A DNA stretch of 64,000 nt, taken from the NCBI RefSeq assembly GCF_048403405.1, contig NZ_CP183129.1; one strand, given 5' to 3'. Below are positions 33,403-48,365 of this stretch, piece after piece (positions within the stretch are counted from its first letter, which is position 1; the number at the start of each line of letters is the position of its first letter). The notes under the pieces were generated by a model. It searched no databases. It was not told the origin of the DNA and was given only the letters and a program-made list of their open reading frames with translations. This DNA comes from Escherichia coli. Lineage in GTDB: Bacteria; Pseudomonadota; Gammaproteobacteria; Enterobacterales; Enterobacteriaceae. The translations under genes were made by a program, and so were the position numbers.

Positions 33403-34085
<683 letters not shown>

Positions 34086-43303: not shown

Positions 43304-44500
43304 ATGAAAACCTGGATATTTATCTGTATGTCCATAGCAATGTTGCTATGGTTTTTAAGTACGCTAAAACGTAAACCCAGTCAAAAGAAAGGCTGTATTG
43401 ACGCCATTATACCTGCTTATAACGAAGGCCCGTGTCTGGCACAGTCACTGGATAATCTGCTGCGTAATCCTTATTTTTGCCGGGTAATTTGCGTAAACGA
43501 CGGCTCCACGGACAATACCGAAGCGGTCATGGCGGAAGTCAAACGCAAATGGGGCGACCGCTTTGTTGCCGTCACGCAAAAAAATACCGGTAAAGGTGGT
43601 GCGCTGATGAATGGCCTCAATTACGCCACCTGCGACCAGGTTTTTTTAAGTGATGCCGACACCTATGTTCCGCCCGATCAAGACGGAATGGGCTATATGC
43701 TTGCAGAAATAGAGCGCGGTGCTGATGCCGTAGGCGGCATTCCCTCTACTGCGTTGAAAGGCGCGGGTCTGTTACCGCACATCCGCGCGACCGTAAAGTT
43801 GCCGATGATTGTTATGAAGCGCACGCTACAGCAGCTCCTGGGCGGCGCACCGTTTATTATCAGCGGTGCCTGCGGGATGTTCCGTACTGATGTATTGCGT
43901 AAGTTCGGTTTCTCTGATCGTACTAAAGTCGAAGACCTTGATCTCACCTGGACATTGGTGGCAAACGGCTATCGTATTCGGCAGGCGAATCGCTGCATCG
44001 TATACCCACAGGAATGCAACAGCCCGCGTGAGGAATGGCGTCGCTGGCGGCGTTGGATTGTGGGCTACGCGGTCTGTATGCGCCTGCATAAAAGGCTTTT
44101 ATTTAGCCGCTTCGGTATCTTCAGTATATTTCCTATGCTGTTGGTTGTGCTTTATGGCGTTGGGATTTATCTCACTACCTGGTTTAATGAATTCATCACC
44201 ACCGGGCCGCATGGTGTGGTGTTGGCAATGTTTCCGCTTATCTGGGTCGGCGTAGTTTGTGTTATTGGTGCTTTTAGCGCCTGGTTTCATCGTTGCTGGT
44301 TGTTGGTGCCTTTAGCACCGCTTTCCGTTGTGTATGTATTATTAGCTTATGCCATCTGGATTATTTATGGACTTATTGCCTTTTTTACTGGACGCGAACC
44401 TCAGCGCGACAAACCCACCCGCTATTCCGCACTGGTGGAAGCGTCAACCTCTTATTCCCAACCTTCTGTCACAGGAACTGAAAAACTTTCTGAAGCTTAA
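43304..44500 (+). CDS. yaiP: Family 2 glycosyltransferase YaiP with C-terminal membrane segments
   Basis: 398-aa ORF with GT-A motifs (VICVNDGSTDNT, FLSDADTY) followed by several hydrophobic helices. Confidence 0.9.
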   Translation: MKTWIFICMSIAMLLWFLSTLKRKPSQKKGCIDAIIPAYNEGPCLAQSLDNLLRNPYFCRVICVNDGSTDNTEAVMAEVKRKWGDRFVAVTQKNTGKGGALMNGLNYATCDQVFLSDADTYVPPDQDGMGYMLAEIERGADAVGGIPSTALKGAGLLPHIRATVKLPMIVMKRTLQQLLGGAPFIISGACGMFRTDVLRKFGFSDRTKVEDLDLTWTLVANGYRIRQANRCIVYPQECNSPREEWRRWRRWIVGYAVCMRLHKRLLFSRFGIFSIFPMLLVVLYGVGIYLTTWFNEFITTGPHGVVLAMFPLIWVGVVCVIGAFSAWFHRCWLLVPLAPLSVVYVLLAYAIWIIYGLIAFFTGREPQRDKPTRYSALVEASTSYSQPSVTGTEKLSEA

Positions 44501-45059
44501 TGTTAAAGAGAAAAATATTCAGATTGCAGACCAGGTAATTATTGATGAAACTGCAGGTGAAGTTGTTATCGGCGCGAATACCCGTATTTGTCACGGTGCC
44601 GTTATTCAGGGTCCGGTAGTGATTGGCGCAAACTGCCTGATAGGTAATTATGCGTTTATTCGTCCTGGCACAATAATCAGCAATGGCGTAAAAATTGGCT
44701 TCGCCACCGAAATTAAAAATGCGGTTATTGAAGCGGAAGCAACGATTGGTCCGCAATGCTTTATTGCCGACTCGGTAGTTGCAAACCAGGCATATTTGGG
44801 CGCACAAGTACGAACCAGTAATCATCGTCTGGATGAACAGCCCGTGTCTGTTCGAACTCCCGAGGGAATTATCGCTACCGGATGCGATAAATTAGGTTGT
44901 TATATCGGGCAGCGTTCACGCCTTGGCGTACAAGTTATTATTTTGCCTGGGCGAATTATTTCCCCGAACACGCAACTTGGCCCGCGCGTGATTGTAGAAC
45001 GTAATTTACCTACCGGAACTTATTCACTCCGACAAGAACTTATCCGTACAGGAGATTAA
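44349..45059 (+). CDS. yaiX: Hexapeptide-repeat (left-handed beta-helix) acyltransferase-like protein YaiX, uninterrupted; start uncertain
   Basis: Repetitive [LIV]-G-x-x-x-x hexads (VVIGANTRICHGAVIQGPVVIGANCLIGNYAFIRPGTIISNGVKIG...). The ORF begins 150 bp inside yaiP with no ATG/GTG right after the yaiP stop, so the true start may be internal or non-canonical. I recall K-12 has this gene disrupted by IS2; no IS here. Confidence 0.7.
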   Translation: MPSGLFMDLLPFLLDANLSATNPPAIPHWWKRQPLIPNLLSQELKNFLKLNVKEKNIQIADQVIIDETAGEVVIGANTRICHGAVIQGPVVIGANCLIGNYAFIRPGTIISNGVKIGFATEIKNAVIEAEATIGPQCFIADSVVANQAYLGAQVRTSNHRLDEQPVSVRTPEGIIATGCDKLGCYIGQRSRLGVQVIILPGRIISPNTQLGPRVIVERNLPTGTYSLRQELIRTGD

Positions 45060-45060
45060 A

Positions 45061-45834
45061 ATGATAAAACGGACGTTATTAGCGGCGGCCATTTTTAGCG
45101 CATTACCCGCTTATGCCGGGTTAACTTCCATTACCGCGGGCTACGATTTTACCGATTATTCTGGCGATCATGGCAACCGTAATTTAGCGTATGCTGAACT
45201 GGTGGCGAAAGTTGAAAACGCAACGCTGCTTTTTAATCTTTCCCAGGGGCGTCGTGATTATGAAACTGAACATTTCAATGCCACTCGCGGTCAGGGTGCG
45301 GTCTGGTATAAATGTAATAACTGGCTGACAACCCGAACGGGTATTGCCTTTGCGGATAATACGCCGGTCTTTGCCCGCCAGGATTTTCGTCAGGATATTA
45401 ACCTGGCACTGTTGCCAAAAACGCTTTTCACGACCGGTTATCGCTACACTAAATATTACGATGATGTCGAAGTCGATGCCTGGCAAGGCGGCGTATCACT
45501 CTATACTGGCCCGGTGATCTCCAGCTACCGCTATACCCATTATGACTCCAGCGATGCAGGTGGTAGTTACAGCAATATGATTTCCGTGCGTCTGAATGAC
45601 CCGCGCGGCACTGGTTATACGCAACTATGGCTAAGCCGCGGAACAGGCGCTTACACCTATGACTGGACGCCAGAAACACGCTACGGCAGCATGAAGAGCG
45701 TCAGTTTGCAACGTATTCAACCGCTGACTGAGCAACTTAATCTCGGGCTGACGGCAGGTAAAGTGTGGTACGACACCCCAACTGATGATTATAACGGTCT
45801 GCAATTTGCAGCCCATCTGACCTGGAAATTCTGA
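45061..45834 (+). CDS. yaiO: Outer-membrane beta-barrel protein YaiO
   Basis: 257-aa ORF with signal peptide MIKRTLLAAAIFSALPAYA and a C-terminal aromatic residue (...LTWKF); starts 1 bp after the yaiX stop. Confidence 0.92.
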   Translation: MIKRTLLAAAIFSALPAYAGLTSITAGYDFTDYSGDHGNRNLAYAELVAKVENATLLFNLSQGRRDYETEHFNATRGQGAVWYKCNNWLTTRTGIAFADNTPVFARQDFRQDINLALLPKTLFTTGYRYTKYYDDVEVDAWQGGVSLYTGPVISSYRYTHYDSSDAGGSYSNMISVRLNDPRGTGYTQLWLSRGTGAYTYDWTPETRYGSMKSVSLQRIQPLTEQLNLGLTAGKVWYDTPTDDYNGLQFAAHLTWKF

Positions 45835-45944
45835 TTGCTTCTGCCGCCCGCTATCCGGGGCGGCCTTCCCTGCCGATTAGCCCCCCCTTTCCTCTTTGTT
45901 TTCCGACCACATTCACCGGATAAATTTTATTCTCCAGTGTTATA

Positions 45945-45992
45945 TACTATAGGGGGGTATGTATTGACACATGGCATACCCCCCTATAGTAT
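45945..45992 (+). promoter_or_regulatory. frmRAB promoter/operator: long dyad with G6/C6 tracts (FrmR binding site)
   Basis: ATACTATAGGGGGG...CCCCCCTATAGTAT, a 14-bp perfect inverted repeat flanking TTGACA, about 30-70 bp upstream of the frmR ATG. Confidence 0.75.
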
Positions 45993-46018
45993 ATTGCGTG
46001 CAGATGATGAGGTGCGAA

Positions 46019-46294
46019 ATGCCCAGTACTCCGGAAGAGAAGAAAAAGGTCCTTACTCGAGTTCGTCGTATTCGGGGGCAGATTGATGCTCTGGAACGGT
46101 CGCTGGAGGGTGATGCCGAATGCCGTGCCATACTCCAACAGATCGCTGCCGTTCGGGGCGCGGCTAACGGGCTGATGGCAGAAGTGCTTGAAAGCCATAT
46201 CCGGGAAACGTTTGACCGAAATGACTGCTACAGCCGCGAAGTCAGCCAATCCGTTGACGACACTATTGAACTGGTTCGTGCCTATCTTAAATAG
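46019..46294 (+). CDS. frmR: Formaldehyde-responsive transcriptional repressor (CsoR/RcnR family)
   Basis: Matches Frm[52 protein letters not shown]...; start at the ATG at 46019 (91 aa). Confidence 0.94.
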
Positions 46295-46298
46295 CTGA

Positions 46299-47438
<1,140 letters not shown>

Positions 47439-47531: not shown

Positions 47532-48365
47532 ATGGAACTCATTGAAAAACATGCCAGCTTTGGCGGCTGGCAAAATGTGTATCGGCATTATTCCCCATCA
47601 CTGAAATGTGAAATGAATGTCGGCGTCTATCTCCCACCAAAAGCTGCAGGTGAAAAATTACCGGTGCTGTACTGGCTTTCGGGCCTGACCTGCAATGAGC
47701 AGAATTTCATTACTAAATCGGGGATGCAGCGTTACGCGGCTGAGCACAACATTATTGTTGTTGCGCCGGACACCAGTCCGCGAGGCAGTCATGTCGCAGA
47801 TGCCGACCGTTACGATCTCGGGCAAGGTGCCGGGTTTTACCTGAACGCAACGCAAGCGCCGTGGAATGAACATTACAAAATGTATGATTATATCCACAAC
47901 GAGCTGCCGGATTTAGTGATGCAACATTTTCCGGCAACGACCAGAAAGTCTATTTCAGGTCATTCTATGGGCGGGCTGGGCGCGCTGGTGCTGGCGTTAC
48001 GTAACCCAGATGAATATGTCAGCGTCTCAGCGTTTTCGCCCATTGTCTCCCCATCGCAAGTACCGTGGGGACAGCAAGCCTTTACCGCATATCTTGGTGA
48101 AAATAAAGAGGCGTGGTTGGATTACGATCCGGTGAGCCTTATTTCACAAGGTCAACGCGTTGCGGAAATAATGGTTGATCAGGGGTTGAGTGATGATTTT
48201 TACGCAGAACAGCTGCGGACTCCAAATCTTGAAAAGATCTGCCAGGAGATGAATATCAAGACGTTAATCCGTTATCACGAAGGTTATGATCACAGCTATT
48301 ATTTTGTCTCCAGTTTTATTGGCGAGCATATTGCCTACCACGCCAATAAACTGAATATGCGTTAA
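47532..48365 (+). CDS. frmB: S-formylglutathione hydrolase
   Basis: 277-aa esterase-D-like ORF with GHSMGG nucleophile motif. Confidence 0.95.
   Translation: MELIEKHASFGGWQNVYRHYSPSLKCEMNVGVYLPPKAAGEKLPVLYWLSGLTCNEQNFITKSGMQRYAAEHNIIVVAPDTSPRGSHVADADRYDLGQGAGFYLNATQAPWNEHYKMYDYIHNELPDLVMQHFPATTRKSISGHSMGGLGALVLALRNPDEYVSVSAFSPIVSPSQVPWGQQAFTAYLGENKEAWLDYDPVSLISQGQRVAEIMVDQGLSDDFYAEQLRTPNLEKICQEMNIKTLIRYHEGYDHSYYFVSSFIGEHIAYHANKLNMR

Follow-up and report, generated by a model that had tools for sequence, protein, structure and literature searches.

The FrmR-binding region of the Escherichia coli frmRAB promoter, with which this analysis is concerned, is already known and published. Denby et al. 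2016 (PMC5146963) described the dyad studied here as a 'large inverted repeat centred at -29' made of tandem type I FrmR sites (ATAC-N9-GTAT), and reported specific binding of FrmR to a K-12 Pfrm fragment, and its release by formaldehyde, using BLItz. Purified EcFrmR bound Pfrm DNA with a Kd of ~220 nM compared to 3600 nM for control DNA, the binding data were fitted with a 1:1 model, formaldehyde accelerated the dissociation of FrmR from Pfrm DNA, and a Pro2-Cys35 methylene bridge was found to increase the distance between DNA-binding patches from ~35 to ~45 Å (PMC5146963). As determined by anisotropy, the Salmonella 33-mer TTCTGATAGTATACCCCCCTATAGTATATGGAG binds two FrmR tetramers at ~1e-7 M each, and mutation of one of its flanks abolished binding (Osman et al. 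2015 and 2016; PMC4528141, PMC5016687). The FrmR stoichiometries reported for the two systems do not agree, with two tetramers on the single Salmonella site versus a 1:1 fit for E. coli. Pfrm has reportedly also been the subject of a sort-seq study by Rohlhill in 2017.

A 2024 study (PMC11127321) grafted ATAC-N9-GTAT sites upstream of the -35 element and into the spacer of the J23100 promoter and obtained FrmR-dependent repression, which amounts to a sufficiency test of these sites. In the same study, a shortened PfrmR devoid of the DNA upstream of both sites reportedly lost FrmR repression despite retaining both of them; flanking DNA may thus contribute, and the result hints that it could do so through wrapping, by analogy with what has been proposed for RcnR. 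The evidence that FrmR binds the frmRAB promoter and is released by the effector, and that ATAC-N9-GTAT-type sites are both needed and sufficient, comes from these cited papers, while our own observations bear on the anatomy of the sequence, its overlap with the promoter and the pattern of conservation. The comparison with published FrmR footprints proposed in a preliminary description of this DNA found no counterpart, in that the searchable literature yielded neither a base-resolution footprint nor a ChIP experiment for FrmR on the frmRAB promoter; the word 'footprint' has no occurrence in PMC5146963, and a search for FrmR ChIP-exo work returned nothing relevant.

Anatomy of the dyad and of the frmRAB promoter

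The window, a 64-kb stretch of E. coli DNA, carries a yaiO-frmRAB locus whose gene order matches that of K-12 MG1655 (Table 1). The gene downstream of the dyad bears the annotation frmR in RefSeq E. coli, and its product matched PF02583 with 82 bits and PDB 5LBM, the structure of E. coli FrmR, with E=4e-55. The yaiO-frmR intergenic region was 100% identical to that of E. coli strain 4621 and was found in 5414 of 5426 complete E. coli genomes.

Ending ~24-25 nt before the frmR ATG, the dyad delineated by the repeat finder reads ATATACTATAGGGGGGTATG-TATTGACACATGG-CATACCCCCCTATAGTATAT, where the left 20-nt arm ATATACTATAGGGGGGTATG (45942-45961) pairs with the right 20-nt arm CATACCCCCCTATAGTATAT (45975-45994) with 100% complementarity, around a 13-nt spacer, TATTGACACATGG, and a centre at 45968. 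This dyad is real and non-random, far beyond chance: no other perfect inverted repeat (loop <=40) in the window is as long, the runner-up having arms of 13 nt, and the longest repeats in 40 first-order-Markov simulations of the window measured 9-14 nt, with a median of 10. Furthermore, the 17-mer ATACTATAGGGGGGTAT, searched with up to three mismatches, occurred at two places in the window, both of them in the dyad, for 0.03 expected.

Each arm has an internal dyad of its own, ATAC-N9-GTAT, and makes up a complete type I site. Under the definition of type I operators of the CsoR/RcnR family given in PMC5146963, both arms display a 3-8 bp G/C tract within a short AT-rich inverted repeat, here a G6 (C6) run flanked by ATAC and GTAT; they lie in the promoter of an operon encoding a DUF156 (PF02583) repressor; and the motif recurs ahead of orthologous repressor genes (49 of 55 frmR loci, see below). 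The two sites are inverted relative to one another and 32 bp apart, start to start, in both the window and K-12, where PMC5146963 states a separation of 31 bp. The distal, promoter-upstream site stops 3 nt short of the -35 hexamer, and the proximal one overlies the promoter spacer and the -10 element.

The dyad overlaps a sigma-70 promoter whose transcription start is predicted at about 45997-46000, TTGACA-17-TAGTAT being the sole sigma-70-like match between positions 45700 and 46400. An alternative -10 element, TATAGT (45985-45990), likewise falls within the proximal FrmR site, and in the plasmid paralogues TATAGT is found 17 nt from the -35. The sequence GTGAGGT, ahead of frmR, is conserved among the compared frmR loci. 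The preliminary description had correctly recognized an operator for a repressor of the CsoR/RcnR family, a 91-aa PF02583 protein being encoded downstream with 5LBM as its best structure match, as well as the TTGACA hexamer bracketed by the dyad and the overlap with the frmRAB promoter (TTGACA, 17 nt, TAGTAT). Its 14-bp perfect inverted repeat needs adjustment: the two 14-mers, ATACTATAGGGGGG (45944-45957) and CCCCCCTATAGTAT (45979-45992), are present and perfect, but the first starts at 45944 rather than 45945, 21 rather than 20 nt separate them, and the arms really extend over 20 nt.

Table 1 Features of the yaiO-frmRAB region, in window positions
Feature	Position	Strand	Remark
yaiO	45061-45834	+	
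Whole perfect dyad, FrmR operator region of the frmRAB promoter	45942-45994	.	Repeat finder
Distal type I FrmR site, ATAC-TATAGGGGG-GTAT	45944-45960	+	Motif ATAC-N9-GTAT as in PMC5146963 and PMC11127321
-35 hexamer TTGACA (consensus)	45964-45969	+	In the dyad spacer, between both sites
Proximal type I FrmR site, ATACCCCCCTATAGTAT on the + strand	45976-45992	-	Distal 17-mer repeated on the - strand
-10 hexamer TAGTAT	45987-45992	+	Consensus match, 17-nt spacer; in right arm and proximal site
Probable ribosome-binding site GAGGTG	46009-46014	+	4 nt before the frmR ATG; sequence-based
frmR, 91 aa, CsoR/RcnR family (PF02583)	46019-46294	+	Best solved-structure match PDB 5LBM
frmA, S-(hydroxymethyl)glutathione dehydrogenase	46329-47438	+	Regulated gene
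frmB, S-formylglutathione hydrolase	47532-48365	+	Regulated gene

Several other elements of the window were noted. The second-longest perfect inverted repeat, with 13-nt arms (TAATGCCCGTCAA) and a 4-nt loop, is located at 34044-34073. Upstream of yaiO, yaiX is an intact 236-aa open reading frame (44349-45059), whereas the K-12 MG1655 yaiX is a pseudogene split by IS2A. A G+C-rich stem-loop (45843-45864; GCCGCCC, 8-nt loop, GGGCGGC) begins 9 nt past the yaiO stop codon and may form a structure at the yaiO 3' end; it lacks a T-run, and the terminator scan did not call it. Finally, a C tract in the yaiO-frmR spacer (45881-45887) counts seven residues here versus ten in K-12 MG1655 and is length-variable.

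FrmR sites within Escherichia and across frmR loci

Both FrmR sites are almost invariant in Escherichia, E. albertii (L005) having one base changed in the proximal site. Variation is carried by the 15 bp between the sites, where the window and K-12 differ at positions 45962, 45970, 45973 and 45975; one further substitution, at 45998, lies downstream of the sites. The perfect arms accordingly measure 19 nt in K-12, 20 nt here and 21 nt in the most frequent E. coli allele, whose spacer is GCATTGACATATAGC and which was found exactly in 3554 genomes; the exact 57-nt allele of the window occurred in 4 of 5426 complete E. coli genomes. Strain FORC_044 (L060, 1222-1237) has a G5 instead of a G6 run in its distal site (ATAC-N8-GTAT). 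Since this form was a singleton among the 5426 complete genomes, it likely reflects an assembly error or a private mutation, and phase variation of the tract was rejected on the same ground.

Other DNA takes the place of yaiO ahead of frmR in ~1100 of 5414 E. coli genomes, with tauA in ST131 and fbpC in FORC_044. Similarity of ST131 (L061, 1000-1200) and FORC_044 (L060, 1130-1215) to the window starts 15-26 bp upstream of the dyad (~45916-45927), indicating that a rearrangement or island boundary adjoins the operator, with both FrmR sites kept.

The comparison was extended to 55 frmR loci from a protein-anchored scan with one genome per species, to which were added three plasmid paralogues, two further E. 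coli backgrounds and one Salmonella-type contig. Of the 55 loci, which span Enterobacterales, Burkholderiales, Sphingomonadales and one Planctomycetota MAG, 49 had ATAC-N9-GTAT in the 150 nt preceding frmR. Seventy sites were counted upstream of frmR (7.6/kb) as opposed to 2 in the 164 kb making up the rest of the same loci (0.012/kb), an enrichment of ~600-fold. When 42 non-redundant sites were oriented with their G-rich strand, the consensus was ATAC-T-N3-G(G/T)GG-(A/G)-GTAT, that is TACT-N7-AGTA, with the half-sites and spacing of the RcnR motif TACTGGGGGGNAGTA quoted in PMC5146963.

The arrangement of the sites was far from uniform, their number (one or two), orientation (inverted or direct) and spacing (23-35 bp) all being variable. 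Escherichia species have two inverted sites 32 bp apart with a TTGAC -35 between them. Plasmid-type cassettes in Klebsiella, Enterobacter, Edwardsiella, Providencia, Pantoea, Serratia and Aeromonas have two inverted sites at 34-35 bp with TTGAC or TTGAT between them, and a -35 of this type was found between the sites in all two-site enterobacterial loci. The two sites are direct repeats at 33 bp in Erwinia endophytica and at 23 bp in Paraburkholderia (Burkholderiaceae), and show the opposite inversion at 32 bp in Deefgea. Tatumella, Actinobacillus, Novosphingobium, Luteimonas, Gluconacetobacter, the Planctomycetota MAG and Salmonella have a single site. Spacings of 32, 34 and 35 bp leave residual rotations of 17, 86 and 120 degrees, respectively, which disfavors a strict face-of-helix requirement between the sites. 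Inverted symmetry and arm spacing, which a single long operator would be expected to keep wherever the regulator is conserved, were not kept across these loci.

The G6 run was often degenerate, reading GTGGAG, GTGGGG or GGGAGG in plasmid and other enterobacterial operators. We also compared the arms of one locus with those of different loci, concerted evolution being expected if a hairpin, a cruciform or the whole dyad were under selection. Identity of the N9 core was 7.4/9 within loci versus 7.0/9 between loci, a difference that was not significant (permutation p~0.11), and the palindrome as such thus shows no sign of upkeep. Judged from these sequence comparisons, the conserved unit across Proteobacteria and beyond is the 17-bp ATAC(T)-N7-(R)GTAT rather than the long palindrome or the G6 homopolymer.

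Conjugative plasmids of Klebsiella, Enterobacter, Citrobacter, Salmonella and others commonly carry frmR-frmA cassettes (L002-L004 and 527 PLSDB plasmids), which share 80-85% DNA identity with the chromosomal gene and often adjoin IS1 and a VOC-family gene. Every cassette comes with a two-site operator of its own, in which the G tract is degenerate, and one cassette type (L004, L010, L013, L015) has an N10 distal site located 40 bp from the proximal site.

Readings of the dyad

The 53-bp dyad is very probably the autoregulated frmRAB operator, composed of two identical 17-bp type I sites that are inverted and lie at a distance of 32 bp. The distal site adjoins the -35 TTGACA on its upstream side and the proximal site overlies the promoter spacer and the -10 element, such that FrmR tetramers bound to both would exclude RNA polymerase. 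Formaldehyde cross-links Pro2 to Cys35 between FrmR subunits and, because the cross-link widens the distance between DNA-binding patches from ~35 to ~45 Å, FrmR comes off the DNA and frmRAB is transcribed. We infer the exact stoichiometry of FrmR on the two-site operator of E. coli and the transcription start of the frmRAB promoter, as well as that repression works by occlusion and not by distortion of the DNA. The recognized unit is not the long perfect palindrome itself, which arises as a by-product of two consensus-perfect sites standing back to back.

The loss of repression in the shortened promoter (PMC11127321), together with the binding of two tetramers to the single Salmonella site, leaves room for the inverted two-site layout of Escherichia and of mobile enterobacterial frmRA(B) cassettes to build a higher-order complex that would be impossible on single-site operators such as that of Salmonella. 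We regard this as unlikely, if conceivable. Such a complex may consist of one tetramer bridging both sites by its two faces, or of four tetramers sandwiching the DNA with upstream wrapping; if it did form, the formaldehyde switch would be sharper and more cooperative.

Less probable still, and in our opinion improbable, is that the whole long dyad is the recognition unit, with one FrmR tetramer (or both its faces) contacting both arms and with symmetry and spacing being essential, a possibility raised by Denby et al. (PMC5146963). While the symmetry of the arms is perfect over 20 nt (21 nt in the most frequent E. coli allele), the arms of a given locus resemble each other no more than arms taken across loci do (7.4 vs 7.0 of 9, p~0.11). 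Likewise, the 32-bp spacing is close to three helical turns, yet inverted pairs are found with spacings of 32, 34 and 35 bp, which do not preserve helical phase, and direct pairs occur in Burkholderiaceae (23 bp) and Erwinia (33 bp). The 1:1 fit of the E. coli binding data (PMC5146963) would suit a single tetramer on the dyad; however, the patches on one tetramer face are ~35 Å apart, a distance that fits the internal dyad ATAC-N9-GTAT of each arm, whereas the arms are 32 bp apart from centre to centre. Moreover, single-site Salmonella binds FrmR tightly, and Tatumella, Novosphingobium and many others also have single sites.

The preliminary description had placed one tetramer on a dyad with 14-nt arms and an N20 gap, and had taken the G6/C6 tracts to be a hallmark of the family's operators. 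The first proposal is at odds with each arm being a complete type I site, with patches ~35 Å apart for arms separated by 32 bp, with FrmR binding to the single Salmonella site, and with the single, inverted or direct sites, 23-35 bp apart, of other loci. The second does not hold for the plasmid and other enterobacterial operators that have GTGGAG, GTGGGG or GGGAGG instead.

That the palindrome acts through nucleic-acid structure, as a cruciform or as an RNA or DNA hairpin (a yaiO read-through terminator, or a recombination or replication signal), is very improbable: the dyad lies between the co-directional, convergent-free yaiO and frmR and can fold as single-stranded DNA into a 21-pair hairpin of -19.5 kcal/mol (z = -6.7 vs shuffles), but neither strand has a T-run after it, the terminator scan found no site in 45700-46400, Rfam gave no match at E<=1, the predicted transcript begins downstream of the dyad, the conservation of the 17-bp unit extends to single-unit and direct-pair loci incapable of forming this hairpin, and the median number of places with the dyad is one per E. 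coli genome. Three specific candidates were rejected, namely an intrinsic (Rho-independent) terminator, as the stem is followed by ATTGCGTG with no T-run and with no scan site in 45700-46400; a known RNA, in the light of the Rfam search at E<=1; and a dispersed extragenic palindrome (REP-like), since the dyad is confined to this locus in the window and, in the median E. coli genome, to one place.

Two back-to-back type I sites forming the frmRAB operator carry little weight as a discovery, the operator being published and already in use in formaldehyde and methylglyoxal biosensors. The modest added value of the present analysis is comparative, in that the 17-bp unit is conserved while site number, orientation and spacing are free to vary. 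This may be of use in the annotation of the FrmR regulon and in the design of synthetic FrmR-controlled promoters, and calls for caution in treating perfect palindromes as single sites.

Comparison with described operators

The closest described system is the E. coli K-12 Pfrm operator, which occupies the same locus and has both 17-bp sites, the -35 element and the 32-bp spacing, with arms identical to those of the window over 19 nt; the four substitutions between the sites and the one downstream listed above set the window apart from it.

In Salmonella Typhimurium, the frmRA operator (frmRAPro) sequence ATACCCCCCTATAGTATAT shares an identical 19-nt stretch with the proximal arm of the window, positions 45976-45994 (the proximal site and 2 nt on the + strand) corresponding to the core of the Salmonella frmRAPro probe. 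FrmR tetramers bind frmRAPro in vitro, and the flanking T/A-rich repeat is required (Osman et al. 2015, 2016). Salmonella, however, has one site only, located 7 nt ahead of the frmR ATG (13 nt when counted from where the ATAC-N9-GTAT unit ends), and no distal G6 copy. Owing to this single FrmR site, Salmonella is devoid of the long dyad and its site is placed differently with respect to the promoter. On the Salmonella-type contig (L063, 9682-9710), the single FrmR site abuts a GGAGG ribosome-binding site, and a possible TTCAAT-16-TAGTAT promoter ends in the left flank of the site, an operator-promoter geometry unlike that of E. coli.

The E. coli RcnR operator of the rcnR-rcnA intergenic region (TACT-G6-N-AGTA, in tandem; Iwig & Chivers, as cited in PMC5146963) shares with the FrmR operator its repressor family, half-sites and geometry. 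The FrmR consensus derived from the 42 non-redundant sites, ATACT-N7-RGTAT, contains TACT-N7-AGTA with a G-rich run beside one half-site, as in RcnR, and both operators have tandem sites at an autoregulated promoter. They differ in the central 7 bp, which read ATAGGGG or ATAGTGG here compared to GGGGGGN in the RcnR operator; in spacing, the RcnR sites lying at 19 bp from one another and each holding one tetramer, on the same face (PMC5146963); and in effector, nickel or cobalt for RcnR versus formaldehyde for FrmR.
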